A stretch of DNA of 45,201 nt from Candidatus Omnitrophota bacterium (GCA_026387165.1 JAPLMG010000015.1:1-45201); one strand, 5' to 3'; numbered from the stretch's first letter, positions 1,217 through 24,500 are shown. The notes: generated by a model not told the origin, from the sequence alone. Program-made: numbers and translations.

Positions 1217-1331
1217 AATAAGGCGTGCCCGCTTCGTTAAGCGTGAGCCCCATATCACCCATATGGACTCGGGCGCGATGCCGGGCACGTTTTTCGCTCG
1301 ACCCTTCGGCCTTTCGTTCCAGCCTAACCCA

Positions 1332-1360
1332 TTGCAAATTTGATAAAAATAGTGTATACT
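1332..1360 (+). promoter_or_regulatory. Candidate sigma70-type promoter of the abiE operon
   Basis: TTGCAA (1332-1337), a 17-bp spacer, then TATACT (1355-1360), in an AT-rich tract about 60 nt upstream of the 1421 start. Confidence 0.4.
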
Positions 1361-1384
1361 TTAAATAGATGAAAAGAGCAGCAG

Positions 1385-1400
1385 TTTAGTTATAACTAAA
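1385..1400. promoter_or_regulatory. Perfect 16-bp palindrome, candidate AbiEi operator
   Basis: TTTAGTTATAACTAAA is its own reverse complement. It lies between the putative -10 and the start codon. AbiEi antitoxins are known to autorepress through inverted repeats in their promoters. Confidence 0.4.
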
Positions 1401-1420
1401 TAAAACAACTTATTATATCT

Positions 1421-2203: not shown

Positions 2204-2816
2204 AAGATCGATACTGCCGGCTATTAAAAAACTTGGGCATCAGGTATTTACCACGCACGAATTGTCTTTGGCGTCGGGAAGATCGCTTTCCGTGGTAACC
2301 CAATCTCTCAATAACCTGGTAAGAGAAGGAGTTGTTATTAAAATACGCAGGGGCGTTTGGGCCGAAGAGGGTATTGGAGCGATAAGCCCTTATGCCGTGA
2401 TACCGTATCTGTTTCCCGCCCATCGGGCATATGTCTCATTTATAAGCGCGCTCCATATATATGGCATCATAGAGCAGATCCCGCTGGTAACGACAGTCGC
2501 ATCAACGGCCCACGCCGGGATCATCAAGACGAAGATAGGCACATTTTATGTGCATCATATAACGCCGTCATTCTTTTGCGGGTTCGGTTGGTATAAAGGC
2601 AGCGGCAGTTTCCTGATAGCGGAACCGGAGAAGGCGTTAGTAGACAGCTTATACATTTCGGCGTATAAAGGAAAACGGTTCGGGCGTTTTCCCGAGCTGC
2701 GCTTTCCAAAAACATTCAGTTTTAAAAAAGTTAAAGAATGGATAAACAAGATCCCCAGCCCGAACACCCGTAAGTATGTCAGGAAACAACTGAAAGAAGT
2801 TCACGCCGCCAAATAG
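2196..2816 (+). CDS. abiEi: AbiEi-family antitoxin / wHTH transcriptional regulator (COG5340-like)
   Basis: 206-aa ORF with an N-terminal wHTH-like segment (FTTHELSLASGRSLSVVTQSLNNLVREGVVIKIRRGVW). The typical AbiEi core is also present: AYVSFISALHIYGIIEQIP ... AEPEKALVDSLY. It is translationally coupled to abiEii. Confidence 0.8.
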   Translation: MRRRSILPAIKKLGHQVFTTHELSLASGRSLSVVTQSLNNLVREGVVIKIRRGVWAEEGIGAISPYAVIPYLFPAHRAYVSFISALHIYGIIEQIPLVTTVASTAHAGIIKTKIGTFYVHHITPSFFCGFGWYKGSGSFLIAEPEKALVDSLYISAYKGKRFGRFPELRFPKTFSFKKVKEWINKIPSPNTRKYVRKQLKEVHAAK

Positions 2817-2898
2817 GCACGTTTTTTGCACATCTCAAGACCCACTTTTTTACACTCCTAATCAATCCGCTAACTTTTTAATGTAACTCCTTGTGGAC

Positions 2899-3029
2899 TA
2901 TAATGTTGCAACTTTGTTAAGACTTAAAAAAGCCATAAATCCCATATTGACTTATAATGTATATATGTTACACTCCATGTGTAAGGATGAATAAAAAGAC
3001 AGTTATTAACACATAGTAAGACAAGAGGA
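2899..3029 (+). promoter_or_regulatory. AT-rich leader of the giant gene with -10-like boxes and a Shine-Dalgarno
   Basis: TATAATGT occurs twice (2899-2906 and 2953-2960), and TTGACT at 2947-2952 abuts the second copy. The direct repeat TTACACTCC is at 2850-2858 and 2968-2976. AGAGGA at 3024-3029 lies 9 nt before ATG 3039. No convincing -35 sits at correct spacing, so the promoter call is weak. The SD is good. Confidence 0.35.
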
Positions 3030-3038
3030 ATCTCCAAA

Positions 3039-6000
3039 ATGAATGCTTGGCAGGCACGCCGAAAGGCGCCTCAGAGTGGAGATGTAGAGGAAGTATTATC
3101 ACGCGGCTCTTTATCCACGCGAGAAGAGTTGGGGGCGAGATCGCTTATCATGGATCTGCAGAGCCCCCGTAATAAGAAGTGGATAAGATCGATCGCTCTT
3201 GTTTTAGTCGTCTGCTTTATCAATCAGGATCTCGTCTGGGCGCAGGAAGGAACTCCCGTTTGGTCGAAAGGACAAGGCCACTCGACAGGCTCAGGGCCCG
3301 GCGGGAATTTTGCTGTAAAGACTCAGGCCGTCACCCCCCAGGGCGGCATAGCCATCCCCAAAGACGTCGCCGTCACGAAGGAAGTATACAAATCCACAAA
3401 CGGCGATGCCAGGACGGTCATCAATATCCAGGACGCCCACGCATCGTTAGCCGCGCAGGAATCGATAGCATCCATCCTTGATTCATTGGTAACCAATTAT
3501 GACCTGAAGCTGGTAGCCATAGAAGGCTCTAAAGGCTATATCGATACATCCCTGCTGAAGACATTCCCTGATGAAAATATCCGCAAGAACACGGCAAATT
3601 ACTTCATGAAGAAAGGCAAGCTCTCCGCGGGCGAATTCTTCTCCATCACATCCGACAAAGAGATCTCCCTGTACGGCATTGAAGATAAGCGGCTCTATCT
3701 GGAGAACGTGGAGCAGTTCAGGAAGATCCAGGAGATAAACGAATCGACCAAAAAAGATATCGCCAATCTCACGGCCGCTCTGGAAAACCTGAAAGAGAAG
3801 ATATATTCCAAGGATCTTTTGCTTTTGGATAAGAATTCAGTACTGCACAGGGACGGCAAGATAACATTCAGCGAAAGGTGGGACCTTGTAAGTAAATTGG
3901 CTGCCACTCAAGGTGTAACTTACGAAAAGTATGAGAATCTCAGCAAGCTTGTGGAGTCGCTGAAATTAGAAAAGAAGATAGACTTCCAGAAGGCGAACAA
4001 GGAACGTGACGCGCTGATAGACATATTGAGCAAAAAGATGGTTAAGACCGACCTCGAGCAGCTCGTCCTCAGGAGCTTATCTTTCAAGCAGGGAAAGGTC
4101 TCGCAGGGCGAATATTATCTCTACCTTCAGGAGCTCGCCCGGCATTACGGCGTGGACCCGGAGCCTTACAAAGGCCTCATAACTTACACCGAATATATAA
4201 CGCTGTATGAGTCGATAGACCTTGTAGAGATATTCGAGGAAGTGAGGAAGTTCGAGGACTCGATAAAGGAGAAGATCCTGAAAGATGACTACCAGAGAAA
4301 GCTGCACGGTTTCTCGAGATTTGTCTCTTTAGTCAGCACCCTGTATGAGCTGAAGCTGACCGGCGCAGATACGGGCGAGCTGATTTCCTATATTCCGTCA
4401 TTGCGAGGCCGCGAAGCGGCCGAAGCAATCTCTAAAGGCGGGATTGCTTCGCTCCCTTCGGTCGCTCGCAATGACAAAGAGTTGTCTATCAGCGCAGAGA
4501 CGTTGGCGGCATTCATAAAGAGCGCGTCCCTGAAATACGGCGTCGCGATAGAAGGCGGCTATGACTTAGGCGCGATATTCGCGGAGATAGAGCCGGCGCT
4601 TTCATTCTACAGGACCGCGGAAGAGAGAAACGCCGCGATGCTCGCCAACACGATCAACGAGATGCAGAAGAACGGCCAGAGCGTGGCGGCCTTAGTCACC
4701 GGCGGCTACCATACCAAAGGCCTCACGGAAATTCTAAAACAGAGAGAGACGTCCTACTTAGTCATCCTGCCGAAATTCGATTCATCCAAGGGCGACAGGC
4801 CGTATGTCGCGATACTTACCAATAAGAAGGAGCCTTATGAGAAACTGCTGCAGACAGGGGATTATTATCTCGCGACAACGTCATTCTTCGCCACGCAGGA
4901 CAATTTCAACAACGCGGCCGACATAAGGGCATTTATAAAAGAGCTGGTGCTGGTGGCGATGGCCCAGGCCGTACTGGAAGAAAAGAATCCGAAAAGCGTA
5001 GCTGAGATATGGTTAAACGCGTATGAGGGCAGGCAAAAACAGCTGGGCCTTAGAGACAGCGAAGTGCTATTCACAAGAAAAGAGCTGGAAGGCCTCATAG
5101 GTTCCGTTGAGATCTTAACCATAGAAAAAGGCAAGACGGCGGTGGCATCCATACCCACCGTGAGCTTACGCGGCGAAATCGGCAAAGAAGCGCTTTATTT
5201 GAAGGTCGTCAGGGCAGCGGACGAGACCGGCGTTGATATCGGAGTTCCGACATCCGGGGAATTGGCGAGTTTAATAGCCGCTAAGAAAACTTTAGAGAAT
5301 AGAAGGCCAGTGGTAAAGCCGGATGATCTTGAGGACCGCGTCGCGCGCTTAGAGCAAGAGACGGAAAAACTAAAGAAATATATCAAGACACAGGGGCCGC
5401 AGGATGAAGCTCTCATTATAGCGCGCTTGAAAGAAGCCGGATTATTCCAATATCTGGTCGGCCAATTCGAGGGCCAGCCCGCCGACAAGATAACCGGGGA
5501 CAGCCTGATAGCAAAACTGCGCGCCAAAGGCGTGAGGGTCAGGGACTTCGAGGGCTCCGCGGAAGTTTACGGAGAAGTTAACAGCTTATTGGAGAGGGTC
5601 AAGGCCGCCTCAGCGTCCCAGCTTGCAATCACCGAACTTGCCACCGGAGGGCTTATAACAGCGGCCCGACAACGCGCAATAGAACTGGCAATAGGTGTCG
5701 ATGGTAAAGCCGACATATTACAAGTGCCGCCAGCCGTGCCCGTGGCGCCGGCGCCCGCGCCGGCAGCTGAGGCTGAAGCAAGCGAAGCGCAGCGGGCATT
5801 GATCTTGGCTTGTCTTACCGAGCCATTGAACGAAAATTATAAGCGCCTTATAGATATATTCACAACCAGGAAGCAGACAAGATCTATATCGGACAAAGAG
5901 CTGGTCATAATTGATGAGAAACTTAAGACAGCCCTGGCAGGACAGCTCTCAGGGATATTGCCCGGCAATCCCGCGGTTGCTGAAAATTTGATAGACGACG

Positions 6001-9000
6001 AATCTTTCCGGATCTTCAAGAACGCCTTGCAGGCAGAGCTTAATAAGATAAGAAGCCTCGTTCGCGGCCTCGTCGAGATGTGTAAGGATCTACCGGATGA
6101 TGAAGTTCCGGAAGTTGTCCAAGAGCTGAAAGGGGTTTATGAGCCGGTAGACCCGGGAGAAGGTGTCCCTATAGATGTAGGACGGCTTGTTGATAAAATG
6201 CTTGGAGATAGGCAGATCACGTTTGCTTTGGCGCTTCTGCGTAATATAGATAGAATGGCGAGAGCTGGTAGAAGAGAAGAAGCTATTGAATCGATGAAAA
6301 AATTTGACAGTTTCTTCCCGTCCGATAGTGATGCGATGAAAGATCCCGGGGTAATGGCCGAACGCGGCAGAATAAGAACACTATTAAACATAGATGAAGG
6401 AATATATATCCGCGAGAAACCAGGGAAAGGCCCGGGACTAAAAGGCACAATAAATCTTTTATGGCTCGGAGCGGGGATAACATTCCTCTACCATATGGTC
6501 AAGTCGGCAACACCGGCGCTCGCCGAAACAGGGCAAGGGGTGCAAGCGATAATGGGTTCCGGGATCCATGAGGGCGCTAGAGCCGGACTCGCTGCTATAA
6601 GTACAGGTAATCTTGCCGTCGCGATCTTCGTCGCAGTGGCGGCATTTTTGATATGTATGGAAGACTTTGGTATTTCCAAGCGTAAGCAGCCCGCCCCGCT
6701 GTTTCCCGCGGGTAAGACCATGCTGACCGGTCAACCGCTCGAATGGCAAACGCCAAAGTTCCTTTCGCTGGATAATACGCTTGGAATAATTAACTTCATA
6801 GGCATCATGGCGGTTGCCGAATGCGCAATCGGCGCAGGTATAGGTCTCTTGGGTTTCTGGACGGCCATAGGGGTGTCGTTCGCTTTCGAGTTGGTCATAA
6901 TAAAGACGATCGCAAGATACACGTCCCTAATAGATCTTAAAAAGCATCCTTTCCTGAATATGGCTATTGCTATCCTTTACAATAAGATATTTTCGAAAGT
7001 TTTTATAGGGGCCGCGGCTCTTCTCCTTATCAACATGGCGCGGCCGCCAACGCAGGGAGAAGAGATCCGAGCCATGGTATATACCGGCCAGTCCCGGCCG
7101 ATGTGGAACAGCATCTACCGGATAGTCATGTTCATTGCGCTGAACTTTTTCATATACGCCTTTCTGGTCGTTCTCGGCAGAGCGATAAGGAAGTGGAAGA
7201 AGGAGCCTCTGCCGGAAAGCAATGTGAATGAGAAAGATAGGTCATTCTACAGGAGGCTCAATCTCTTTTTAGGGATAGGCAATATTTCGATACCGGCAAT
7301 AATTCTCATGTTATTTTGGCAAAGGTACGTTAGAATACTGCCCGCCGCTTTTCGGATAGCGGTTCTTTCCTTGGGCACAGTAGTTCTGCTGATGATGTCG
7401 CTCTCAGCCTTAAAATCATATTTCAGCAATAGGAAGGCATGGGCCATGGTCGAGCTGAGCGAACGCATCATAACTTCGAGACGGGATCGCCCGGTAGACT
7501 GGTTGCTTAGAGGGCTCATGAGAAGGTCCAAAATTGGCGCGGGCATTTCTCTTGAGGAGGCAGATAAAGCCAATACTAATCTTAGATTGATAGCCATCGC
7601 TCTGGACGAGCTTGCCCGCAAACTGCGTCTCGGAGGAGAATGGGCCGTAGATGCGGTTATAGCAAAGGCAAACTCTGTCTGGAATAGATTTGACGGCATG
7701 AAAGCATTGGAGAAGGCCGATGATAAAGATGCTATAAAGCTACTTGTGCGCAATAGGGCAAAATTAGGGAGTCTTATTTATAAAAAGACGGCGTCTAATC
7801 TGGATCGGATAAATGCTTCTATAGGTGGTATCTTCGGAGCGGGCATTCTCGCAAGAGCGATATATGAAAGACTTATCAGGGGCGAGACGCCCCTTCATGA
7901 GCCAGGCGTAATACAAGCGGGGATAGGAAATAACCTTTTAGTGCTGTTTGCCGTACTGGCGGCTGTCGTTACAGCTATTGTCATAGTGGTAAAAAAGCTC
8001 AAGGGAACGGCAAAGCAGATCGGTACTGTCAAAGAAGAGAATGCCGCAACGAAAAATGCCAGACGTAGGATTAGAGGAGCAAGTACTGCAATAGAAAACG
8101 CGAAAAGACGCGGGGAAATATTAAGAGAGGCTCAGGCAAAACTCTTAGTAGATAGTTTATATGCCTGCTTAGTGCCGGGGATGCCTCTGGATGTGGCAGA
8201 CGATCTAAAGGGCGCTGTAAGAGAAGTAGAAAGAGCCTGTGGAAAAACATTGACCTCCGCCGTGCCTGCAGAAAAACCCAAAGAGAAACCCGGCCGGACA
8301 GTGCAATCTGCCATTCTCGCGACAGGGCTCGGCATGAAAGTATTGAGCGTATTGAATGTGCTTAATCTCGATCCGGCCGCTGCCGCGTTATTCGGCATAA
8401 TAGGATTAGCGCTCGCCGCAGTAGCGACTATGAGCTTCGCATTTACCAATAGAGCGAATATCCTCTTGTTCTTCGCCCCGCCGGTTCCGGCCCGCGGGCC
8501 TCCGGGCGCTCGTAGACCGGAAGCTGCTCGTCAGCCCGGTAGAGCCGCTCAGCCGCAGCCATCGGCAATAACACCACGGCAAATTTCAACCTCAAAACCT
8601 ACCTTCATCCAGGAGATACCGCTCGAATCCCGCGCGGCACGCCCCAGCGATCCTCAGCAAGCCGCGTTCTATAACGCCCTAAAAGAGCGCGGAATGACCA
8701 TTTCAAAAGGCCAGTTGGCCGCGATAATCGAAAATACCGAAGCGATAGAAGAAGGCCGGAAGATGGTATTCGACCACGCCGCGACAGGCGGCGGTAAAAC
8801 AGTCATAGGCTATGGCACTGCTTATCTCTGGGTTGCGGGAGAACGGGGCAGGCGCGCCTTTGTAGCAACGGCCAAAGATTATGATTCAAAAGACAATGCC
8901 GAGGAAGCGCAAAATGTGTTCTTGACTGATGCCTTAAAAGATAAAAAAATACGCGTTGCTTATATTACAGGCGGTGAAGGCAAAAGAGGCGAAGGCAGGG

Positions 9001-12000
9001 TGGCAAACATATATGATTATGATACGGGGGGTTGGCGTGAGGTGCCGGAATCCCGGGCCTACGAAGATGCACAGGTAATATACGCGGATGAGACGTATCA
9101 CAGATTCTTCCTGCAATCCAAAGAAGGCGTAAGATTCGCGCGCGCGCCGGAACATCTTGGCAGGGTCCTGATGATACACGATGAAGCGGATAACACGCGC
9201 GTCCTGAACAGGACCCCATGCGTTATTTCAGGGGACCTGAAACCGGAAGCGGCCGCGGAAGTAAAGGATATGGAATTTGTCCATGCAAATATTTTGGCCG
9301 AACTGGGCATGAGGGGTGAGCCCGCGATAAAAAGAAGCACGCATTACTTCAAGTCAGACGATGACTCTTCCAGGACGACGCTCGACTGGATATTCGGCTA
9401 TCGGAAACTATTAGCGCTGGTCTTTTTCAAATACCGCGCCCAGATGAAACACAGGCCGTTCTCCGAATGGCGGAGGACGGTCGAGACAGCGCTCACGGCG
9501 CAGAATAACTACCTGCCGGACACCGCGCCGGTGCCGGATAATGGCAGGCATTTTAAATTTTATAAGGTCGACAGGGTTTACGGTGATGTCGTTTCGATAG
9601 AGAACGGCGACCCGAAATACGGCCAGGAGCTTCCCGGCGGGCTGCACGACTCTTTAAGGATCATCGCCAGGACCGCCGATCCGAGCTTAAGCGGCGTGAT
9701 CGAGCCGCGCGGCAGCCGTCAGACTATATCGAGGCTGACGGTTGAAAGCTCTGACGCGCTTCCCTGCATGAGGGCGACCGTTTTGATGACAGCCACGGGG
9801 CGCGAAGCGCTGGGGCAGCTATACCCGGACTTGAAATATGTGGCGGTAGAGAGCGCGTTCCCCGACAACAGGATCGTCAACGCGCCGGTATTCACGGATA
9901 CGGACCCGAATAAATGGAAAGCCATGATCGGCGAAATAGGCAGGCATTTGAGCGGCCCCCAACTCATAGATGTCAGGCACGAAGACATCGGTATCGTAGA
10001 GCAAAAATTGAGGGAGGCATTCGGCTCCCGCGTAGAAGTGGTTGTGTATAAAGGAACCCTGCCAGAGGGCCAGAGAACGGATATTATCGCCAATGCCGGG
10101 AAGCCGGGCCGCATAACACTGATAGATGATACGCTTACCAGAGGCGTCACCATAAAACTATTGGAAGAAGCGTCCAGGCAAGAGGGTCTGCATCTTTACC
10201 TCACACATATAAAATTATTCAAGATCCTCATCGACCAGTTAATAGGCCGTGTCGGCAGGCAGGGACTGCCCGGCACAGTCCACCAATTCTACTCAAAAGA
10301 AGATCTGCGCAAACTGGGGCTTTTGGTAAGCGAGAAGATCCGCGAGAATCTTGTAGAGCCCCTGATGAGAAGATTAGGCCGTCCTATCCCCGGTTCGGGC
10401 GGCGTTTATGAGGACACTGTGCCAGGCGGCAGGCGTAAGTTTGAGGATCTTGAAGGATTGTCAGGGATAGAGGAGGAGATCTTCGGCAGGGACCGTATAC
10501 TCGATACACATCTTGCGGAGACGATGTCGTCACACAGGCGCGAGATCTCAAGGGACGGCCGGATCTACGACGCCGCGGATAAAATATTTGAAGAGATGGC
10601 CGCGGATCCGGAGAGGACCGCAAAGGAAGCTCTCGAAATGATAAATAGTCCGCGCTCGCTGGAGCTTATCAGGCGCAGGGCAGTCTTAATTAAAAGATCA
10701 TCCGTAGAGAGGTCTCTGGCGGAATTATTTACATCCAGTATATTCTATGGCCTTGATGATCCGCAAAGGCAGGCGTTTGTTAGAGCGATAACGCAGCTTA
10801 TAGAAAGAGAAAGGATCGAAGAAGCGGCCGTTAAGATTCGCTCCAGGATCAGAGAAGCGGTCATCCTTCTCGTTGGGCCGCGGGTCGACAGAGCCAGGAC
10901 CGGATATATTACAGCCGCGGAAGAGATGAAGGATGACGGCGCGACAGAAATTGAAAGAAGCGCCGACCAGACTAAAGACGCGTCATTGACCGGCGCCGCG
11001 AAGGCCCGCTTTGAAGGAGAGAGGAAGAACGTAGCGACGATGCTTAAGGCCTCGGCGCTGGAGATGCTTGGCGGTGAGATAGAAGACAAGAGGGCGCAGC
11101 AAAAAGAGATAACCGTATTACCCGGCAAGGCAAGAGTCGCGCGCGTGTCCGTATACGGCGGCCTCACATCGCTCTATTACTATTATATATATCAAGGTAT
11201 AATCTCGCCTCTTCTGTCCAGTGGCGGGCTGGGCCGTTCGGTAGAAGGCCTCTTTAGTTTTCTGCCCGCGATATCGGGTTTAGGCCCGGCTGTTCTGACA
11301 GTGATAACGTTTACAGCTATTATCCTGGTCCTTACGCTAAGATCTTCTTACTTGAAAAGAATAGCGCAGATGAATGTCGCCGACATCAGGATGAAGTGCG
11401 TTCTTACAGGGCAGGAGCCGGCCTTAAAAGAACCGTTACTTTTCGGCAATTATCTTCTCTATAAGCATTTCTTAAATCCCGTGGCATTCATGACGCTGCC
11501 TGTCGCTTTGGTCCTCATGCTGTCCGCTACCTCACCTTTAATGCTGGGCCTTGTAGGCATGACTGTCACGCAGGCGCTAGTCGCCGCGGCGTTTTCAGGA
11601 GTATCGGGCCTGATAGCCTCTCTTCTTATCATGGTTGTCTACGGCAGGCAGAAAGTGCCCGGAAGCGAAAAGGAAGAGCCGCCCCTGGTTTGGGCGGAGA
11701 AATCCGTAAAGGGGTATAAGATCAACCTGGCTTCCATATCCCGGGGCGCCGCGCTGGTGATCGCCGCAAAAATATTATATCCCGCCCTGATTTCCGGCGG
11801 AATGATGAGCGTTTTAATAGCGCCCGTCATCGTGCTGGGCGCGGTATTGGCAAGCCATCTCCTTTTAAAACGCTTTTTCGCGGTCCAAAAAGGAGGAGGC
11901 ATTGAATCTAAAACATTTTTTGGAGGCAGAAGCTCACTTCTCGGATACGCGATCGGCGCCGGCCTGGCCGTTACGGTCCTGTCAATTGCCCTGAGCGCGA

Positions 12001-15000
12001 GCGGCGGTGTTGCCCTGTATGCGGGAATAGCCGGGCTTATAATGACAGGCGCGTATGCATTATCAGGCGCGATGCAATTTGCCGGACAATCGAAATCCGT
12101 CGTGACCAGGGCGGGGGTAGGACGAAAATATCTTGGCGAAAAGGGCTTTGCCAATATAATCCTGGGGGTCATCGAGAACGCCTCTATGAATCTTATCATG
12201 CTGGCGCCGGTAATACTTACGATCGCGCAATTCAATATAAAATCCTTCTTTATCGCTTCGGTAGCGCCTTCGGCGCTGGCGCTCTCGGGTTATATTTTAG
12301 CTCCTTTGTTCCTCCTGATCGGCGTCTATCTGATCCTGGCTTATAAAGATATCGTGCCCATGGTAAGGTCGAAAAAGGTCATGGCCGCCCTCGGTATCGC
12401 GTCAGCCGGAAGCGTTGCGCTGGGCGCGTACCGGCAAAATATTCAGGCAGCTACCGCCTCTCAGCAGGCGCTGGAAGATTATTTCACAAGGCTGGAAGAG
12501 AAGCTCGGCCCAAGCCGGGGGGTCAGTCCTGAGGTGGTTGCAAGACGTGATAGGCTTGTTGCGCAGGCGTACCGCGACCTGACCGCAGAGGCCCAGAAGA
12601 GCGTCACCATTTCTACAGATGCCATCATAGGGAAGATCGCTTCGGAGAGATTCAATCAAGCCCTGCAGCCGTACCTGGATAGTTACAATGCCGCGAGCGC
12701 AGCCGCGAATACCGCTTTGGCACAGAAAGATAAGCCCGATTTCAAGAAAGCCCAAGAGGAATTCGGCAAGGCCGCCGCCGCGCTTGCCGGGATAAATAAT
12801 ATCGATCCCAATCTCATGAAGTTTACAGAAATTACGGAGCCCAAAGGCTTTGTCTTAGCTCTAAACAGGGCGGCAAGATATATCGCGGGCGTGGCCAGGG
12901 TATCTCCCGACCGGGTGCCTTTCGGAGTTATAAGAAAAAATATTACTATCGCAGAGCAGATCGCGAAGCTGAATAAGCAGAAAGACGATATCGCAAAAGA
13001 GGCGCGGCTCTTTCCTTATAGAGAGCAATATAAGGAGGGTGTCAATAATGTAACCGCCGCCTTTTCCGGGGAAGGCCTTCCTGATTTTGCGGCCATAGAT
13101 AGCGCGTTTACAAAAGCAGCCGGCGCTCTTATCGAAATAAATAAGATAGATCCGAAGATCGTCACAGAAGAGCAGATCGGGAATTTGAAAAAGAAGCAAG
13201 AGGCGTATTCCAAGCTCGCGAAGTTCGCGACGCCGGAAGGCGGCATGGCAGCTGTCGGGCCGGCTGCTGGGCCGGGACCGGGCGCAGGCGCGCCTCCGCC
13301 TCCTCCGGAAGATAAGGCAGCTACGCAAGCTGCAGCGATCCCGGGCGCGCCGGGCATGGCGGCGCAGGCAATTGCCGCCGCTTCGATGGGTCAATTGCCG
13401 TCAACCACGGACCAACCCGATATAAAATTTGCCGTAACGCCGGAGATGGCGGGCGTCATAGCGCAAAACGCGAGTTATTTTGCCTACGATATCGGCGTGG
13501 ATAGGGCCACAGGCCTTCCGTATAACCACATAGTTCTTTCCGGCAACTCGATCTCTTCAACAGGCGCATACTGTAATCCCACCGACATAGGGCTATATCT
13601 GGATATAATGGCCTCCGTAGCCAACGGCAAAATTAAGATGAAAAGCGTGACGCCCCAGGAAGCATTGGGCAGAATTAAGAAGGCGCTGGGCACTTTATTA
13701 AATATACAAAAACGCGCCGCCGACAACTGGAAAGGTCTATTCAGCTGGTATCAATTTAGGGGCGGAAACGCGGTCAGGGATGAGGCGAGCAAAGTATCAG
13801 CCGTTGATAACGCAAACCTGTGCTGGTCTCTTGCCGCGGTTATCGGAGCTCTTCAGGGTGACCCCGCAAACAAAGGTATTGTAAATGCCGCGAATGATAT
13901 TATAAATGCTCAAGCCTCCGGATGGGCGGATCTTTATGACAGCGATAAAGGGCTAATGCGCGCCGGTTACGATTTAACGGGAAGAGGCTATTTAACATAC
14001 TGGCTCGACAGAAGATATAACGAAAGCAGGACCGCGACGGCGTGGGCTATACTGCACAGTAACGGTAAAGTGCCCGTAAGCGCCTTTACGAATATGAAAT
14101 ATCCGTCCAACCCTGAACAATACGCTACAAGTGACGGCAAAAATATCACTGGGCGCATGTCATGGGACGGCGCTATATTCCAGGCGCTGATGCCGCTATT
14201 GTGGATCGACGAGAACCGGATATCTCCGGATAGCTACGCAAGAGCGCACAGGGATACGGTCGAAGTCCAGATAGATCATGCGATGAAAACGAAAAAACTG
14301 CCCGCGCTGCTCTCGACATCATACGGGACGGACGGGAATTACAGGGCTTATGGTGTACCTGCCCTTGCGGAGACGGTAGTCAGTTTCGGAAATAAAAATC
14401 AAGTATTTGATGACGTCGCATCACCGCATACGTTGGCGCTTGCGGCGCTTGTTGATTATGACAGAGCTAGTGGTCTCATAACCAATCTCGAAAAGAAGCA
14501 TCCCAAGATAAAGACGCCGTATGGTTGGAGGGATGGCATAAATGCGCGCGGAGAAACGAGCGATACCATATGCGCGATCGACCAGGGCATGCTGGTTTTG
14601 GCGCTCCTGGGCCCGACGAATTCCGGTTATGTATCGGCTTATCTTAATAATGTCGAAGGGCGGATGGATCAGCTTTATTGGATCTACGGCGCAAAAAGGC
14701 CGGTAGCTGAAACCAAACCGAAAACCGAAGTTAAGGCTGCAGCGGAAACCAGGCCATCTGCCGAAACAGAGCCCGCTGCCGCAGCGCGCGCGGCGCCTAA
14801 GACGATAGGTTTTACAACTCTGCCGAAAGATATTGCCCAGCGGCTCGGCGCGAATCTGCTCGACAATATGGATAGATTTTCGGGTACTATAACCCCGGAG
14901 AAAAAAGAAGGGGTTTTTCAGATGCCGGCCGCAGAACATGGATGGACAGGAACGACAGTAGGCAATAAAAACTTAACCGGTTTCAAATACGCATATATCG

Positions 15001-18000
15001 AAGTGCGTAATACAGGCGGGGAAGATAAAACGTTTAAACTGGAGCTTAAGGGTATATTTGACGGCAAGAAGGTTGTGAGGCTGCCTAATGATGATAAATG
15101 GCATCTAATCCCCATAGAATTGCCAGGCGACGCCGCCTCACCGTTGGGTTATTTTGCCATATCCGATATTTTAAGCGCGTTTGAATTGAGAGGGGTATAT
15201 TTTTCCAAGGAGACGATAGAAATAGCGGCTCCTGAGGTCCAGAGGGTTCCTAAGCCGCAAGCGAAGCCGGCGGCAGCATCTGCTACAACGGCAACTGCGT
15301 CGGATGCGGCTACACCGGCGCCGGCGGTGACGTCCGCGCCTGCGACACAGCCTGCGCCTAAACCTGCGGTCAAGAAGAAACCTGTAGAGCAGGGAGCTCG
15401 CCCCACTACGTGGGAAGCGGCGCCTGCGCCCGCGCCGGCAGCAACTTCCGAAAAAGTCAGAGAAGATATCAGATCGTTATTCGTTTCGGCCGGCGCGGCA
15501 CTTGACGCGGCGGACAAAGCGCTTGATGCAAGAGACGCTGCCGGGGCGTCGAAGTCAATATCTGCGGCCAGCGGGAAATTCGGAGAACTCGTTTCGCTCT
15601 GGCAGCTGAATGAGCCCGTGGAAGAGAAGGCGCTGAAGGACCTGCAGGATCGCGTGCTCGACACGGCCGCCAGGCGCTCGAAAGAAGCGGAGCGTGAAAG
15701 ATCTATAAGTGGATGGTTAGGGTCGGTCCCGCAGCAGCTGCAGTGGGCGGCCGAACTTCTGCCCCCGCCAGCTAAGCCTGAACCAAAGGTGGCCGAACCT
15801 GAGCCGGTAGAGCGCGGCCTTAACATGTTATGCATAGCCGGGTTCTCTTTACTTCCGAACAGGGATCTGGAAACGTCCGTATCCCCGATATCAAATGACC
15901 TCGGATCAAGAGGTTATAAGGTAAGCCTCATAAAGCCGGGCGACCATATATTCCCGGATGGATTCGGAGAGTCGGGCGGGCACTATGTGGGAGAAGAGGC
16001 GTACATGGAGTGGTATGAATCGCACGACCCCGTTGTGCTCATCGGCACGGGCGCCTCGTCCGACGACGTCATGGGCGCGGCTAAAAAATTCATAGAGCTC
16101 GGCGGCAGGGCCGCGGATATCTTTATCGTACTCGTGGACGGCAATGCGGATTATGTAAAGAGCCTGCCTGATGGCGTGAAAGTATTGAGTTTTCATTCCG
16201 CGGCGTCGGGTGAGTTCGGGCCGATCAAAGGGGCCGCGAAGAATATAAGGATAGAAGGCGTCTCGCACAGAGATATCATAAAGGATAACGCTGTCGTACG
16301 GGGAAAGATAGTTTACGAGCTGTACGCCGCGCTCGAGGAGCGTGAACCGAGGCCGGTAAGGAAGGCGCCCGCAGCGCCCGTAAAGATCGCGGAGAATATT
16401 TTAGGTCTGATAGCCGATGCTGACGTCGCGCTTAAAATGGCGCGTGTAGAGCTCGCAAAGAATGAAGCCGGCAAAAACAGAGCGCGCATATATATTAAAA
16501 AAGCGGAGGACGCATTAAATAATCTTAAAAAACTGAAGGCGGAAGAAAAATATATATCGGCCCTCGGCGCTAGGATCGCCGCGTTTAACCGGCCTGCCGC
16601 CATTGAGCAAGACGATAAGATGGCCAGAAGAGATCCGGTGGTCGCGCAGGTTGAAGTATCCGAGATCGCCGGTATCATAGGCAGCGCTTTCCGCAAATAC
16701 GCATACAGCGATACCGCGGCAGGAAGCAAAGAGGGCGCTTACTTAAGTATGGATTCCCTTGCCGGGGAACTCGCGCTTGATATGCGTTATTATCTCGATT
16801 TCCAGCGGGATAAAGATGGTAAAAGCATAACGGCGCAGGACGTAAGGGAGGCCGCGGGCATAGCGTTAAGCGAGTGGCTCGCGAGGAATCCTGAAGCCGG
16901 CAATGATTTGCCCGGAATAATAGCCGATCTTATCACGGAAGAGACCGGGGTGATATTAAGGACGCTTTACATAGATGTTCCCGGATCCGAGGCAGAGGCA
17001 GCGGCCGACAATATTGCCGCCAGGGCCGCCGGGATGACGGGCAAGATCTCCGCCGGGATCGTAGGCAATGTCGCCTCCGCATTGACCGCAAAGCGTCCTG
17101 CACAGCCACCCGTGATGGAGATAAGAAGGCCGCTTAAAGCGAGAAGCCCTAAAGGCCGCAACAACGAATATGACATCAAATATAACGACTGGAGGCTGAT
17201 GGCCTATACTTTCGGAGAGGGCGCCGGCGCGAGAGATGGCGCGAGGTACGGATTGTTCGGGGCCGGCCACATAAAATACGGCTCAGGCGACGAATGGTTC
17301 CAGCCGAGGGACATCCCGGAAGCTGTCATGACAAGGAGAGACGGATTCTGGAAAGGATGTAAGAGGCTTCTCTTTAAAGAAGATATACAGGCCCTTAAGG
17401 ATAAGGGCTGGGAATTCTATAGTCCCGAAGAGGAGCCGCACATATCATACGAGAATATGACCGCCGCCGGTATCTTCATGGCGTCGCTGGAAAACATAGA
17501 TAATTATACAAGAATGAACGAAATAGCGAAGCAGCTGGGCATAGTCCTTACGGCTGACGACAAATTCCACCTGGATCTCATCGCGCAGGCCTCATTACCG
17601 GGAGGCGTGAGCGGCGGAGTCCAGCTTTGGTTCTATCTTAAGAACCCGGCCAAAGAGGTGAATGAAGAGATATCGTCGCAGAAAGAGAACCTGCAGAAGT
17701 TTGTCCGCTGTGACTATGTGCAGAAGATGCTCAACAATATATATGGCCTGAGGACGGCCCACAGGGAGGCGTCGGCGAGACTTAAGAACATGGAGAATTT
17801 CAAGGCGGAATTTGAGGAGATAGCAAAGCTCGCCGAGGCTAATAAGACGATAGAGAGAGCGGGATTTAAGATAGAGTCAACGAGAAAGATGATAGACGAT
17901 GCCATACGGACGGAGACCGATAAGATAATAGACGCGCGTACGGCGCTGAACAAGATAATGCGGCGCGCTCCCGAAGCTCCGTTTACTCTCAGCGAAGAGG

Positions 18001-21000
18001 AGTTCGTCGAATGGGACAGCCCTGAGTCGAAGAAAAGAGCTGATGTGCTGGAAAAGCAGATAACAGATAACATGGGCATGGCCCAGGCATCCTTCGCTTC
18101 CGAAGTCGGGTTAGCGAAAGCACATAAGAATCTGGGCGATCTGGGTTATGCGCTTGCCAAGGCCCGGAAGGAGCTGAGTATACTTCTGGGCATAAGCATC
18201 ATGTACGGATCCGACTCCGGAGCGAGCTCCGGCTTTATGCTGGAGTTCCGCAGGGACAAAAAGACAGATCTCATGGTATCCCGCCTGGGGGCGTTCAATG
18301 CGATCGCCGCGTTAAAGAATACCGAAGAGATGGCCGTGGTAAGAAGCGCCGTGCTCGCTAAAAGGCTTGATGCCATAAGAGAAGAGCTCGACTTTCTTAA
18401 TAAGAAATTGGCGCCCGCGACGCTAAAGATAAAAGAGGCCGAAGCCGAGCGTTACAAGACAACCGGGGATAAAGAAGGCCAGCCCCAGGTGCAGGTTGCC
18501 GATGTCAACGCCGCATATGCGGCGTACTTCTCCATACTGGATACTATCGCCCAGGCCCAGGCGGAGATAGAGAATATTGAGCGGGAAACCTCGACTCTCA
18601 AAAACTCGCTTACAGTCAAGACCAAAGAGATGGAGGATAAATTCAAGACGAAGGACAGCCTCATAGAGGCGCTCGTCAAGGCCGGGCAGGCCGAGATGAG
18701 GAAGCTTGACGCGACTCAAGTAACGCACATATCTCAAGATCCGCTATCCGAGATCGACGCCGGTATAAAAAATTCAGCCCAGGTCCTGGCGCTGGTGAAT
18801 GAAGAGACCGCCGCCAAGAGGGCCATGCAGGCGGTGCTTGCCCAGATACCTCAGGCCAAAAAATTCAAGGCGCTACTTAAGGAGAGGGAAGAGCTTGAAG
18901 CGGCGTATTATGAGGAGTACGAGAAGAGCCCTAACGAAGATACCGTAAAGAGGTTTATGGCCAAGAGCAGGGAGCTCGAGAAGAAGATAGACGTCATAAT
19001 GAATAACCTGCTCGATTTCGTGAATAAGACTGTTGAAGGTAAACAGGCGACGCTCGTGGGACAGAACTGGCTGGAAAAATTATTCAATGTCCGCAAGACG
19101 GTGAAATGCGAAGCGGTAGACATAGAGGGGTCGTTACCATCGGGCGGATTGTCTCTCAAGCTAAAGCTATTGATAGGTAAAGAATATTACGGTGAAGTGC
19201 GCCTCTTGAACCTCGCATGGCAGAAGGCGCAGAACAGGACCGTTAGCGCCAGGAATACGGTAGCACACAATATCGTTACGGCGCTGAATCAGATGAGGCA
19301 TACCAGGCTTTACCTCGCGGGAGAGAATAGCAGGCTTAAGGAGTCCGAGGCCGCGGCCAGGAGAATAGTAGAGAGGATCGCGGAATGGGAAAGCCGTCCG
19401 GATTCCGGAGAGCGGACGGAAGAGCTTAAAAAGCTTAAAGAGAACATGGCGAAAGAAGAAGCCCGCGGCGCGGAAATATCGATCAATGTCACAAGGGCCA
19501 AGACGCGCTTTAGCGAGCTGGAGATATCTTACAAGACCCTATTGGGCGTAGATCAGAAGACAGTTATTGATGTAAGCGTAATTATTGACTCATCGGACGA
19601 TAAGTTCAGGGACGCGGTAATGTTTGCGCTCTTTGATAAGGAAAAAGGACGGTTCGACAAGCGCCAGCTCAACAAGGAGAGGCAGATCAATATCGACATA
19701 CTCAGGGCCATAGACTACATGGCCAATGAAGATATACCTATACCGATAGAAATATTCATAGGCATGACAGGGGCGGGCATATACGCGGAATTGTTCAACG
19801 GAGACAAGAGGAGGCAGGTGGTCATCGGCAGAAAAGAGTCCGCCGGCGCTCTGAAGAGAGGGCTCGAGGCGTATAAGGACGAAGGCGCCGGGCTTTATAA
19901 TTCCAAACTCAACGCTGTAGACGAAAAAGATATAGCACTGGAACTTGCCGGACTTTTCCGCGGGAAGATAGAAAAAGCCGTTCTCGATGTCGAAAATGGC
20001 CCACGGGAAGAATCGGCATATGATGCGGACATCGACAGTCTCTCCCGAAAAGCGGACTATTTTAGGACGGTGCAGGACGAAGAGAGCGCCTTCGCGAACC
20101 ACCTCAACGCGTCCATAGTGGCCTCCGAACTCGACGACCCGGAAATTAAGGGCAAAGACACGAGAACTACCATAAGAGTTCCCGGCCTCAACAACCTGAC
20201 GATGAAGGATAAGAGCGCCGCGATAGAGGTTATGACTGCAAAAGAAGTGCTCAGCGCGGAGAAGGCGGCGTTCTTTTACAGGCCGCTCAGCGTATACGGA
20301 TTCGCGGTTATAGGATACGGCGCGCAGGGGGCTTATGTCAGCGGCGGCGGCGGAGCGGCCTCCGGCATCCCTGATACCGGTTCCAGCGGCAAATTGGGGC
20401 CATACGGTCCTATAATAGGCCCAAGCGGAGTCCCAGGCGGAGGCTCAGGCGGAGGCCCTGGCGCAATTCCAGGCGGAGGCAGCGGCAGCGGATCCGGCGC
20501 CAGCGCATCCAAAGGAGGCGGCGGAGGAGGCAGCAGTATCGCATTTAATGTAGGGTTGAACTTCGAGTATGAAATAAAAAAGCTGCTCAGCCAGGATCTC
20601 CCAAAAGCCAAAGAAAAATTAAAACTTTCAAAATTCGCTGAAGCCAAGGCCAACGGCGATAAGACGGTCATAGCGAGATCGATGGCGGCCAACATCATGT
20701 CCGAAGTCAACATGCTGGATTTGGCCAAGAGGCAGAAGCAAAGAGCCAGTGATGATAAGCTGCGGGTCGCCGGCCTATCCGACTCGTCCTTAAAAGGGAT
20801 CAGAAAATTGGGCGGGATGGAAGACGTGTCGGCGGAAGCGGACGTTTTTGTAAGAATATCCGAAAAAAGATCAAATCAGGCGCGGCTCGGGTACCAGACC
20901 GCCGCCGGCGAAACGAACGCCGATGTCATCATGACCCAAACGCAGAAAGAGACAATGGCTTTAAGTCCCGAGATGAGGGATCTTGTCGCGCCGTTCGCTT

Positions 21001-21035: not shown

Positions 21036-21510
21036 GTCGAGATAGGTAAGCTGAACGTGACGCAGGCTTGGATAGACAGGTTCATACCGAGCATCAAATT
21101 GAGAGCGGTAGTTTCGGCGATGCAGCGCCTCGTAGGAGTCGAGATCAGGATTCCGATAATTACAGGCGGCGAGCAACAGGCCAACCAGCGCATAACAGAG
21201 CTTGAGCTTAGTAATATCAGATCATCACTTTCCGATGAAAATCGAGAAGTCTTCGATGAATTATACGCGATGTTTACGGAGCTCGAAAGGACGCTTAAGG
21301 ACCTTGAAGGCAGCGAGATAGCGCTTGCCTGGGCGTACGAGAATTATGAAAATGCCCGGAAAGATCTTGAACGGGGGGCTATCGATGAGATAGCGTATGT
21401 AGCGGCGATCAAGGCCTTAAACGGAGCCGAAATAAGATACACTGCGACAAGAGATAGTTATATTAAGCTCGATACGCTGCTCCGCGCGAGGCTCAATAGT
21501 TACGGCCTGA
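20955..21510 (+). other. TolC/OEP-type repeat 2, interrupted by the in-frame TAG
   Basis: LSPEMRDLVAPFASRDPRIRILEK*VEIGKLNVTQAWIDRFIPSIKL...VGVEIRIPIITGGEQQANQRITELELSNIRSSL...DLERGAIDEIAYVAAIKALNGAEIRYTATRDSYIKLDTLLRARLN. This matches the OEP consensus shape: NPdl..a...v.aa.a.v..a....lPsl.l ... l.lPlfdgG...a.i..a ... y.aG.....dvl.a...l..a......a...y......L. Confidence 0.55.
21033..21035 (+). other. Single in-frame TAG separating two giant ORFs of identical frame
   Basis: 3039 and 21120 are both 0 mod 3. The 28 codons from 21036 to 21119 contain no stop, so the TAG is the only interruption in 42,162 nt of open frame. Confidence 0.95.
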
Positions 21511-24500
21511 CCAATAAAGAGATCGCCGAAATGGAGAGGGATGCCAGAGGCAAAGAGGGCGTCGAGGAGGCTGCGAGAGCCGGCGCGGCCAGGAAAGCGG
21601 AAGCGATAAAGGCTGTGGAGCCCGCGCGCGATGCCGAGCTGAGAAGGCTTGAAGAAAAAGAGCGCGAGGCGGTCGTGATCGCCCAGAAGAGGGAAGAGCG
21701 CGAACGCGCCCGGGGCCAGAATCCGCTTGAGAAGCAGAGACTTACAGAGTCAGAGAGAGCGGCGCAGGCGTTATTAAAAGGCGCTCTCGATGCCGACGCC
21801 GAGAAAGCCGAAAATACGATGAAATACAGGGTGCGTTCCGAGATCTTTAAGGACGCGATCATCACACCTAAATACGCGACAGGTGTGAAGTCCTATTATT
21901 CGATAGCGATGGAGAGCCTGCTGACTACCATCGGGATGCCTTTTGGTGTTACAGGGGACGGCTGGGAAAGGGCGGTAAAGATCGACGACTGGCTGGATGT
22001 GGTAAATTCTTACGTCGTTACCCACAACGCGCAGTTCAACATGAATAACAGGCTATCCTTGATGGAGCAGACATACAAAGGCCTTAGCCCTGCAGAGAAA
22101 GATCAGTTAGAAAGGATCTCGAGGAGGCCCAATCAGCCCATCAGATGGGACAGACACTGGGAAGGATATTTCACCAGCGCGCAGATAAATACGCTGAATA
22201 TCCTGTTCAAAGGAAACGAGAGAAAGATCGCCAGCCAATATCTTGATGACGGAAAGATCAATCCCGCGTGGATCGGCCTTTCCAAGATAGGCATCTTAAG
22301 TTACGCGGCCAACAGGCAGATAGCCGATTCTACAAAATCGGCCCTGGGCGTTGTAAAAGAGATCCTGGCTAATGAAGCGATATTTGATAGAGAGCAGAGG
22401 TTCAGGGATCCGAAGAGCGAGGAAGACAAAAACTGGCCGGACAAAGATAAGGCGCTCGACGGATATACCGAATGGCTGCGCAAAACAAGACTGTCCTTAG
22501 ACAATATAGAGTTTTTAAATATACCGGAAAGCGCGAAGCTCGCGGATGGCGGTCCGATCTATCAGGTCAGGCGTTTGATCAAGAATATCTTCGGCAATGA
22601 GCGCGCGATATTCGGCGATTACACCGGCCGCGGCTCGGTGGAGGTATGGAACCTGTACCGGCTATTGTCGCGCCTCGCAAAGCCCGGAACGGAAAGGGGC
22701 CAGTATAAGGGTCTCGAGAACATACTTAAGCTGCTGCATGGCCTGGTCGTGGAGGGCAGGGGCTCGCTCCTGGACTTCTATGGACAGTATGACGAAAAGC
22801 GGCTGAAGGCTCTGCCTGAAGCGTTGAATTTAAGAAAGCTCATCGACGAAAGAGAAGACTACCGCGCCGCTCTCGAAGCCGCAAGGCCGGGCGATGACTC
22901 CGCGGCTCTGAAAGAGAGATTAAATTCCAAAGAGGCGCAGATACAGCGGGAAATGGATATATTAAGAGAGGGTCGTCTATATGGAAACGCCCTTTCCGTG
23001 CTGAGGTTTGCTCTCGAGTCGCCCGAGAATAGTGACATATTGGCTAAACTCGGGACCGGCGATCTCGCGTCCGGAGATACCGATAAGATAATGGATTTTG
23101 TAAGCTATTACTACAAGACCATGGATACTGCCCTGCCGTATCTTGAGAGAGTGTATGATGATCTGCCAAACGGCACCATCGACAGGGACAATCCCGAACA
23201 TATAGGTATACTGAGCCACTTCTACTCGCTCAGAGCGGCCAATAAATGGACAGACGACGAGACGCGGTATCTCCTGCAAAGGTTAGTCTCCGCCAAGGAA
23301 GAGGCGAAGGAATTTCTCGCGATGCTGCGCAATACGATGGTGGATCAAATAACCTTCGACTCCAAAGACACCGGAACCGTCGGCTTCTTATTCGGCCACG
23401 TATTCGCCCGCATCCAGAACGGCTGGGACAAAACGGCCATCAGGGACAGGATCCCGATCATGGGGATGATAAAACCGTGTCTTGAAGCATATCACGGTTA
23501 TAAGATAGATGATAAGGGCACGCCTGAAGAGCAGGCTGATAAAATAGGCAATCTGCTATATTGGAATAAGTTCCTTAAGGAAAATTTGAAAGATGATTTT
23601 GAGCTTTTCAAAGATATTCTCAGTAACCGCAAGGCGGTATCGCAGGCTATTAAGGAGGCGGATCGTGAGCAGTTAGAAACTGCCTTAGCGCAGGCAGATA
23701 AGCGCACAGAGGCTGAAAAATTTGCCATAGCCGTAGCGATTCTAAAAGATCAGAAGCTTGAAGAATGTGTCAGGGCGGATATTGAGGAAAGAAGGACAGT
23801 TGCCGGCAGGGCGCTTTCGCCGGGCGAAGAAACCGCAGTACGCGCAGCTGCCGAAAAAGCGTTTAATGAGTTATACGGCCTCCATATGATGGGGCCGCGC
23901 TATGTGGAAGCGGCAAAGCTCGCCGACGCCGAAAAAGACCGCCGTGTAAAAAAGCTGAACAAGGAGTTCGGACAGATATACGCTCTCTATATGGCCGAAC
24001 GCCGGCTATTCACAGAAACCAAAAAGGCGGTGAGAAGTAAGGCGTTGGAGGCGCTGTATGTCATAGATCCCTCTACTCAAGAGAGGCGCGCTGAGATCGA
24101 TAAGGAGCTTATGGAGCTCGAGAAGAAGGATGAAGAAGAATTCCTCAGGTTATATAAGAGCGGATTTATCTCCTCGGTCGCGGACGCGTTGATAGTCGAC
24201 GCCGGTTTCGTCAGGCTGACCGGAAAAGCATCGATAGTCAAGAATATATCCGATGTGGGCAATGTTATAGCGCTAAGGAATTTATTGACCAGCCTGAAGG
24301 ATGAGGGTATTCTCGCGGCTGCCGAGAAGGGGATGGATTTTGAACTTGAAAGAAGGAGGTATCTAGATAAACGCCGCGGGGAGATAGAGGCGAGCCTAAA
24401 AAAAGCCGACGTTAGCTTAGATGAAAATACTAAAAAGTCGTACATGAAAACCAGCGAAGAAAGCTTCGCCCATATCTACGGGCAGGGCGTCATAAACTCA

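Follow-up and report, generated by a model that had tools for sequence, protein, structure and literature searches.

The window analyzed here is a 45,201-nucleotide (nt) stretch of DNA assigned to a Candidatus Omnitrophota bacterium (GCA_026387165.1, JAPLMG010000015.1:1-45201), and it carries a giant reading frame encoding a divergent SecA-like motor between two transmembrane (TM) clusters (Table 1). The open reading frame (ORF) that holds the motor, ORF1, begins at an ATG with the ribosome-binding site AAGAGGA located 9 nt upstream, and its N terminus (MNAWQARRK...) is the same start that is kept in relatives of ORF1. An earlier first-pass annotation of the window described a 6,000-amino-acid (aa) polypeptide. 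This size fits ORF1 itself, whereas the same frame runs on for at least 8,055 codons beyond a single in-frame TAG, and the 14,054 codons from the start of ORF1 to the end of the window contain that one stop only. The host protein of the motor comprises at least 6,000 residues and probably more than 14,000. Hydropathy divides it into a signal-peptide-like N terminus, a TM-free stretch (aa 69 to 1190), TM cluster 1, the motor, a linker, and TM cluster 2, followed by about 5,300 aa without TM segments (aa 3100 to 8377) that include Glycoamylase-type and OEP domains. Further TM clusters are located at approximately aa 8377 to 8734, 9735 to 10044, and 12070 to 12122, and the Kyte-Doolittle profile of the whole frame shows 45 partly overlapping peaks at or above 1.6.

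Table 1. Features of the window, with nucleotide positions counted from its first letter
Feature	Position (nt)	Strand	Remarks
Bro-N gene	268-1125		Upstream of ORF1
AbiEii gene (toxin)	1421-2203		Upstream of ORF1; overlaps the AbiEi gene by 8 nt
AbiEi gene (antitoxin)	2196-2816		Upstream of ORF1
ORF1	3039..21035	+	5,998 aa; giant frame holding the motor
Sec-type signal-peptide-like segment	3174..3242	+	aa 46-68: NKKWIRSIALVLVVCFINQDLVWA, then QE (...VWA before QE); hydropathy and sequence inspection
N-terminal domain	3243..5078	+	aa 69-680; family without match; conserved in relatives
TM cluster 1	6612..8447	+	aa 1192-1803; about 10-11 helices; hydropathy
SecA-family DEAD motor core	8676..10334	+	aa 1880-2432; NBD1, PPXD-like insert, NBD2; sequence, profile, and fold searches
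Walker A, ATGGGKT	8781..8801	+	aa 1915, Lys1920; motif in ORF1 frame
Walker B DEAD, then SecA-type RTPCVISG stem	9180..9233	+	DEAD at aa 2048-2051 (nt 9180); stem at aa 2058-2065
PPXD-like insert	9237..9770	+	About aa 2067-2244, about 180 aa; boundaries approximate
Motif III equivalent, LMTATG	9783..9800	+	GMTGTA in SecA
NBD2	9864..10334	+	About aa 2276-2432; AGKPGRITL, motif V TRG, motif VI GRVGRQG
Charged, predicted helical linker	10335..11249	+	aa 2433-2737, about 300 aa; conserved within the clade
TM cluster 2	11250..12338	+	aa 2738-3100; about 9-11 helices; hydropathy
Glycoamylase-like domain (PF10091)	14010..14603	+	aa 3658-3855; E = 1e-7, 32.1 bits, cut-off 27
TolC-like OEP domain (PF02321)	20988..21494	+	Pfam match straddling the TAG
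Single in-frame TAG	21033..21035	+	Between ORF1 and the continuing same frame
Continuation of the ORF1 frame after the TAG	21036..45200	+	8,055 codons; still open at the window end

The motor core shares the module order NBD1-PPXD-NBD2 with housekeeping SecA (structures 1m6n, 3din, 5eul, and 6itc). The SecA signature blocks quoted in the first-pass annotation are all present, in one reading frame and in SecA order, between aa 1915 and 2409 (nt 8781 to 10265). The ATGGGKT and DEAD motifs of the module align with the TGEGKT and DEVD motifs of SecA. TPCVISG begins at aa 2059 (nt 9213), and the RTPCVISG stem leads into the insert. After the insert come MTATG at aa 2250 (nt 9786), the AGKPGRITL..TRGV block at aa 2353 (nt 10095) with the TRG of motif V at nt 10137 to 10145, and motif VI at aa 2403 (GRVGRQG, nt 10245 to 10265; GRVGRQGLPG in full). 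In general form, housekeeping SecA and the module have in common the Walker A motif, DEAD, TP.(V/I)ISG, the motif III equivalent, AG.PG..T...RG, and GR.GRQG.PG. Unlike housekeeping SecA, the module has an extra beta-rich insertion in NBD1 (aa ~1970 to 2005). The insert that had been proposed at the PPXD position is borne out by alignments to the SecA PPXD, by SecA_PP_bind matches in three of seven members of the fused clade (the motors embedded, like this one, in long proteins), and by the structural model described below. Over its C-terminal half, the insert can be aligned with the SecA PPXD (W..VE.AL.A ... GGLHDSL versus GLHQAIEAKE), and the window copy itself has no direct match to PF01043 (SecA_PP_bind). 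No second copy of the motor is found elsewhere across the 14,054 codons. In a survey of 134 motors aligned to a hidden Markov model (HMM) of the clade, with fragments judged only over the positions that they cover, all nine fused-clade members keep GxGK[TS], DE[AVF]D, [IL]SG, [ST][AG]T, RG, and GR[VI][GA]R where their sequences extend over them. Walker B and the arginine finger had been singled out for a check of conservation; Walker B and the arginine-containing motifs V and VI are retained in the clade wherever covered, and the motor is likely competent as an ATPase.

Sequence and profile searches place the module with SecA. With the module alone as the query, Pfam returned P-loop_SecA (PF21090, the model of SecA NBD2) below its cut-off and a weak ResIII match (14.8 bits, E = 0.028). 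In the PDB, phmmer placed SecA or SecA2 sequences in the first 16 positions (best E = 3e-5), and in NCBIfam eight SecA/SecA2 models were matched (best E = 2.5e-10, SecA2), with no helicase model better than E = 0.1. BLASTP alignments with two SecA-family proteins (E = 9e-16 and 7e-12) extend over about 280 residues and take in the C-terminal half of the PPXD, motif III, and all of NBD2. In addition, all five matches from an index search of 5.8 billion proteins belong to the SecA family. The word-index searches, with either the module or the clade alignment as the query, returned only canonical or short SecA and missed even members of the query clade, and they have no bearing on rarity. When 1.84 billion representative proteins were searched exhaustively with HMMER, 518 matched the module. 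The best are long TM-rich proteins, namely, P0006 (E = 7.6e-62) and then P0007, P0008, P0010, P0060, and P0075, and the other matches, among those listed, are mostly of about 600 to 700 aa, some being longer. A Pfam scan of 7 of the 518 identified SecA_DEAD in 5, 4 of which also contain P-loop_SecA and SecA_PP_bind; the two closest long relatives, P0006 and P0008, gave no Pfam match. With a profile built from seven fused modules, all 17 matches are SecA, and canonical SecA is reached at E = 1.7e-58. Scanned singly, the clade members match SecA_DEAD (five of seven, best E = 7.6e-23), P-loop_SecA (four of seven), and SecA_PP_bind (three of seven, best E = 5.5e-13), so that SecA_DEAD and SecA_PP_bind are detectable through relatives only and not directly in the window protein. 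Amino acid identity is about 22% to any SecA and 28% within the clade.

Fold searches agree with this placement. The AlphaFold2 model of aa 1880 to 2450, based on a 111-sequence alignment, has a mean predicted local distance difference test score (pLDDT) of 90.0 and a predicted TM-score of 0.88, and the pLDDT is also about 90 across the PPXD-like insert. In a Foldseek search of the PDB, SecA and SecA2 structures fill the first 36 places (E = 3.3e-26 to 3e-13); the first match outside this family is UvrB at 1e-11, and DEAD-box helicases are found further down. The highest query TM-scores, 0.61 to 0.63, were obtained with SecY-bound or substrate-engaged SecA (6itc, 5eul, and 3din). An earlier model of 861 aa that included the linker (15-sequence alignment) reached a pLDDT of 44, with values below 50 in the linker region, and was unusable there. 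Taken together, the module is almost certainly a SecA-family motor. It is best classed with the SecA family broadly, at the level of domains, and not as an orthologue of SecA or SecA2; its score of 39 bits is far below the equivalog cut-offs (at least 725), and its identity to these proteins is only about 22%.

SecA engages SecY and its substrate through the two-helix finger and the helical scaffold, and most SecA proteins end in the zinc-binding tail CPCGSGKKYKxCHG. In the alignment of the module with SecA, the wing domain has no counterpart, and the zinc-binding C-terminal tail (SEC-C, PF02810) has no Pfam match. NBD2 is followed by the linker, which carries the clade motif Y-I/L-T-x-A-E-x-M/I-K. 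Because the stretch after NBD2 has no detectable similarity to the scaffold, wing, or tail, the module corresponds to an N68-like core. Indeed, the SecA-N68 and isolated DEAD motor constructs (5k9t and 3bxz) have the same domain content, i.e., the NBDs with or without the PPXD, and were matched by Foldseek with target TM-scores of 0.51 to 0.61. However, these constructs are laboratory truncations of Escherichia coli SecA, are not natural, and have no membrane fusion. Compared with the housekeeping SecA proteins of Bacillus subtilis and Thermotoga maritima, which are soluble or peripheral, the module is about 22% identical, is covalently embedded between TM clusters, and scores about 39 bits where the equivalog cut-offs are 725 to 862.

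After the long fused proteins, the most numerous matches (E = 1e-11 and weaker) are short SecA paralogues of about 600 to 700 aa, such as P0001, P0013, and P0016. These likewise lack the wing and the C-terminal tail, the C-terminal third being missing. Unlike the window module, they are free-standing, have no fused TM clusters, share about 38% identity with canonical SecA, and score 400 to 700 bits with SecA models. In a single case (L002, positions 1231 to 5527), a gene for a signal-peptide-bearing, TolC-like protein of 781 aa with a weak OEP match is followed after 55 nt by the gene for P0001, a protein of 631 aa with neither wing nor tail; the pair is reminiscent of the giant protein, in which a SecA-like motor and an OEP domain also occur together.

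The multi-helix membrane regions described on both sides of the motor in the first-pass annotation correspond, by Kyte-Doolittle hydropathy, to clusters 1 and 2. A profile of cluster 2 had no match among PDB sequences and thus none to SecY or a solved channel. Relatives were recovered together with their DNA in three cases: L001, from a metagenome-assembled genome (MAG) labelled Planctomycetia, and L003 and L004, from metagenomes, L004 being a longer version of P0006. The named relatives of the clade are five Candidatus Omnitrophota MAG proteins, and L001 is the closest relative from a genome collection. In L001, L003, L004, and P0173, an N-terminal domain with 26 to 71% identity is followed by the motor, the linker, and cluster 2 (26 to 42% identity) in the same order, and the unit of motor, linker, and cluster 2 is about 25 to 42% identical among distant relatives. 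P0010 shares the motor and cluster 2 with the window protein. The N-terminal domain, which is about 600 aa long and bears the motif INIQDAH..AQ..I..IL..L...LVAIEGS, also occurs in many other giant proteins (L001, L003, L004/P0006, P0173, P0073, and P0093), and its profile had no match among PDB sequences or in Pfam. Cluster 1 is not present in L001 and L004. Since L001, L003, L004, and P0173 share the same order, the conserved unit, as judged by sequence comparison, is a signal peptide, the N-terminal domain, a variable insert, the motor, the linker, and about ten TM helices, and on the same grounds TM cluster 1 is part of the variable insert.

The L001 contig (CAYVCD010000006.1) bears the label "uncultured Planctomycetia bacterium," which may be a taxonomic misassignment; the giant proteins that it encodes have their closest relatives in Candidatus Omnitrophota. 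A giant ORF upstream in L001 (at least 2,062 aa) contains GPI, PGM/PMM, and PGI domains, which are typical of Omnitrophota giant proteins. In the ORF of L001 that contains the motor (6407 to end), an HExxH motif (LPHEFFHYALF, aa ~930 to 936) is located between the N-terminal domain and the motor and may belong to a metalloprotease.

The topology of the motor was derived solely from Kyte-Doolittle hydropathy and the positive-inside rule, so that helix counts and their parity are uncertain. In the positive-inside model of the window protein, the "in" loops contain 37 Lys and Arg residues in 171 aa, versus 10 in 97 aa for the "out" loops. The charge-consistent model has 11 helices in cluster 1, with the N-terminal domain outside and the motor inside, and L003 fits an analogous 5-helix model. 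At a strict threshold, the numbers of helices before the motor are 0, 0, 4, 4, and 10, all of which are even. The motor occupies aa 1190 to 1760 of the L001 ORF (6407 to end) and aa 981 to 1549 of the L004 ORF (7031 to end). A low-complexity linker directly precedes the motor in all three proteins inspected, being rich in Ala/Pro in L001, in Pro/Arg in the window protein, and in Glu/Lys/Ala/Pro in L004. On balance, the evidence leans toward a cytoplasmic motor in the window protein.

The first-pass annotation had also attached exported hydrolase and TolC-like modules to the motor. The hydrolase is recovered as the Glycoamylase-like domain, whereas the TolC-like OEP domain straddles the TAG and so does not lie within ORF1 alone. 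With the stop masked, the OEP match rises to 50.8 bits (profile positions 6 to 186) from 33.7 bits (positions 65 to 186) for ORF2, the frame after the stop, alone, which indicates that the TAG is located inside the domain. No homologue spanning the TAG was present among the collected sequences. The TAG could be a sequencing error or a recent nonsense mutation, or it could be passed by readthrough or by reinitiation at a GTG at position 21057; a weak AGGT is found 8 nt upstream of this GTG. The continuation of the frame contains further TM clusters, HEAT repeats, and a weak ARMT1-like match.

Giant proteins with SecA-like domains have been described in Omnitrophota in two preprints. According to West-Roberts et al. 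(2023, 10.1101/2023.11.21.568195), divergent SecA DEAD helicase and preprotein-binding domains are encoded by most of the full-length giant genes of Omnitrophota. In their account, the domains occur in TM-rich proteins, have neither scaffold nor wing, and group in a clade of their own with long branches. The genomes concerned also encode normal SecA and SecYEG, and the authors proposed that adjacent TM regions anchor the domain, which aids the export of the giant protein (10.1101/2023.11.21.568195). Among long Omnitrophota proteins, 39% are of a signal-peptide-plus-TM type, and a PF07517 architecture cluster contains 20 proteins (10.64898/2026.06.07.730766). The giant proteins of West-Roberts et al. 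resemble the window protein in their giant ORF, their many TM helices, and their N-terminal signal peptide, in having one SecA DEAD and PPXD module without scaffold or wing that is long-branched relative to housekeeping SecA, and in combining HEAT repeats and glycan-active domains in the same protein, with GPI, PGM, and PGI in the ORF next to the motor gene of L001. They differ from it in that the window copy falls under the Pfam thresholds and is recognized only through relatives or profiles, that a Bro-N gene and an AbiE pair are located upstream, and that the frame is broken by one TAG. In the published set, the giant gene is usually, but not always, preceded by a type II secretion-like locus (10.1101/2023.11.21.568195), and none was seen in the approximately 3 kb of upstream sequence that the window contains. 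The architecture that the first-pass annotation called nonstandard is indeed absent from textbooks, but it had already been described by West-Roberts et al. and in the 2026 preprint, and the window protein is a further, unusually divergent case of a giant-protein arrangement known at the preprint level. The cassette of N-terminal domain, motor, linker, and TM cluster and the topological paradox described below do not figure in the passages of the published accounts on which we draw.

Housekeeping SecA is tethered to the membrane by an N-terminal amphipathic helix and by its SecY-docking domains. In the window protein, the flanking TM helices would replace this attachment and hold the motor on the cytoplasmic face, where ATP-driven movements of the clamp would push polypeptide across the membrane. 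The TM-free segment of the same protein (aa 3100 to 8377) would most likely serve as the substrate, moved in cis or between copies, and the channel would be either SecYEG or the protein's own TM cluster. We give a probability of roughly 0.6 to this explanation as a whole, i.e., a SecA-type motor core within a giant membrane protein that is cytoplasmic and pushes polypeptide across the membrane, and for self-export as the function of the motor we would offer about even odds. Several observations weigh against it. The window module stays under the curated cut-offs (25.5 versus 27 bits for PF21090 and 39.2 bits versus 725 to 1493 in NCBIfam), and, because SecA-family sequences dominate the alignment behind the model, the fold match depends in part on the sequence evidence. 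The helical scaffold domain SecA_SW (PF07516) has no Pfam match in the window protein or the module, and in a comparison of the clade linker with the C-terminal region of SecA by hhalign (probability of 0.1%), the scaffold and two-helix finger were not detected. The cytoplasmic location expected by the first-pass annotation is favored, weakly, by the positive-inside count, but the charge-consistent model requires a weak helix at aa 1595 to 1613, and in L001 and L004/P0006 the stretch from the signal peptide to the motor contains only Ala/Pro/Glu/Lys-rich linkers and no segment that reaches 1.5 Kyte-Doolittle units. Because no TM helix intervenes, the motor of L001 and L004 would be located outside the cytoplasm if the signal peptide is used, and there is no ATP outside the cytoplasm. 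The possibilities for these two relatives are that the signal peptide is not used as such, that the nonhydrophobic linker is threaded through a channel, or that the motor is exported.

A bolder alternative, which we consider doubtful, is that the motor, the linker, and the roughly ten helices of cluster 2 form an autonomous single-chain translocon that is independent of SecYEG. Cluster 2 would then be the channel, the linker would stand in for the scaffold and two-helix finger, and the TolC-like domain would perhaps provide a trans-envelope conduit, the exported material being the downstream part of the protein or other substrates. The co-conservation of the motor, linker, and TM cluster across distant relatives (~25 to 42% identity) is consistent with this alternative but is equally expected for a simple membrane anchor. 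The failure to detect the SecY-engaging parts of SecA, the presence of the TolC-like OEP domain in the same reading frame, and the one case in L002 of a short SecA-like gene directly after a TolC-like gene point in the same direction, whereas cluster 2 shows no detectable similarity to SecY or a solved channel and gives no positive sign of a pore, and Omnitrophota genomes with giant proteins also encode SecYEG (10.1101/2023.11.21.568195). It is improbable that the protein is a self-contained, SecYEG-free translocase covalently tied to its own substrate, the TM-free segment of about 5,000 aa downstream. In an extreme variant, suggested by the relatives without a TM helix before the motor, the Ala/Pro-rich linker would stay threaded in the channel, or the motor would be exported. 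We also assign a small probability to the reading that the SecA-derived ATPase is tethered to the membrane but does something other than export, for instance, as a regulatory switch or as an unfoldase or assembly chaperone acting on the cytoplasmic segments of the giant protein, or that it is a slowly decaying remnant for which there is no longer a need. The extreme divergence of the module (~22% identity to SecA), in line with the long branches noted by West-Roberts et al., the loss of the scaffold, wing, and C-terminal tail, and the in-frame stop, which could mean decay of this gene, would all suit such a role. However, the catalytic motifs and the PPXD-type insert are kept across relatives that have diverged by up to ~75%, which indicates selection on the ATPase and clamp functions, and there is one motor per giant protein region, always beside membrane helices.

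Two further explanations concern the identity of the module and the reality of the gene. The first-pass annotation left room for a generic superfamily 2 nucleic acid helicase, of the DEAD/DEAH or UvrB/restriction type, that only superficially resembles SecA. The weak ResIII match (14.8 bits, E = 0.028) and the UvrB and DEAD-box helicases lower in the Foldseek list count in favor of such a helicase, but all HMM, profile, and fold searches put SecA in first place, ahead by many orders of magnitude. In addition, the RTP.(V/I)ISG after DEAD, the PPXD insert, AG.PG..T, and GR.GRQG.PG are specific to SecA, and clade members match SecA_PP_bind. By the test that the first-pass annotation proposed, namely, whether the best HMM or structure matches go to SecA or to generic helicases, this candidate is rejected, and its probability is negligible. 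It is also very unlikely that the locus is an artefact of assembly or gene calling, i.e., a chimeric or noncoding long frame or a dead pseudogene. One in-frame TAG does fall inside a domain, the sequence is apparently metagenome derived, and no database entry was found for the exact proteins; against this, there is a single stop in 14,054 codons, the gene has a proper ribosome-binding site and start codon, and collinear homologues occur in four independent assemblies, with 26 to 71% identity over the N-terminal domain, motor, linker, and TM cluster.

A built-in SecA-derived motor is the only obvious clue to the way in which bacteria insert and export polypeptides of 10,000 to more than 100,000 residues. 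The SecA-like motor of giant proteins has been known from two preprints, by domain annotation. The window protein leaves knowledge of the giant-protein class itself unchanged, and what it adds is evidence at the residue level, with all catalytic motifs and a PPXD-type clamp kept and the SecY-engaging domains not detected, together with a high-confidence model that superposes on SecY-bound SecA, a conserved unit of motor, linker, and about ten helices, and a topological paradox in relatives. The fragments aa 1880 to 2450 and aa 1880 to 3130 are defined starting points for ATPase, topology, and structural work.

In the window, the toxin gene AbiEii precedes the antitoxin gene AbiEi, and together with Bro-N they represent mobile-element or defense-type content. 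The genes upstream of the motor gene in L004 encode a patatin, a thiolase, an AMP-binding protein, and a hydrolase. Within the giant frame, the G+C content drops from about 0.51 to about 0.41 over positions 38000 to 45201, and this low-G+C part includes a HEAT-repeat array at approximately nt 40650 to 41460 (PF13646, E = 1e-60). A weak Pfam match to ARMT1-like, a damage-control phosphatase, is located in ORF2 at approximately nt 36441 to 37097 (E = 3.9e-4, under the cut-off).

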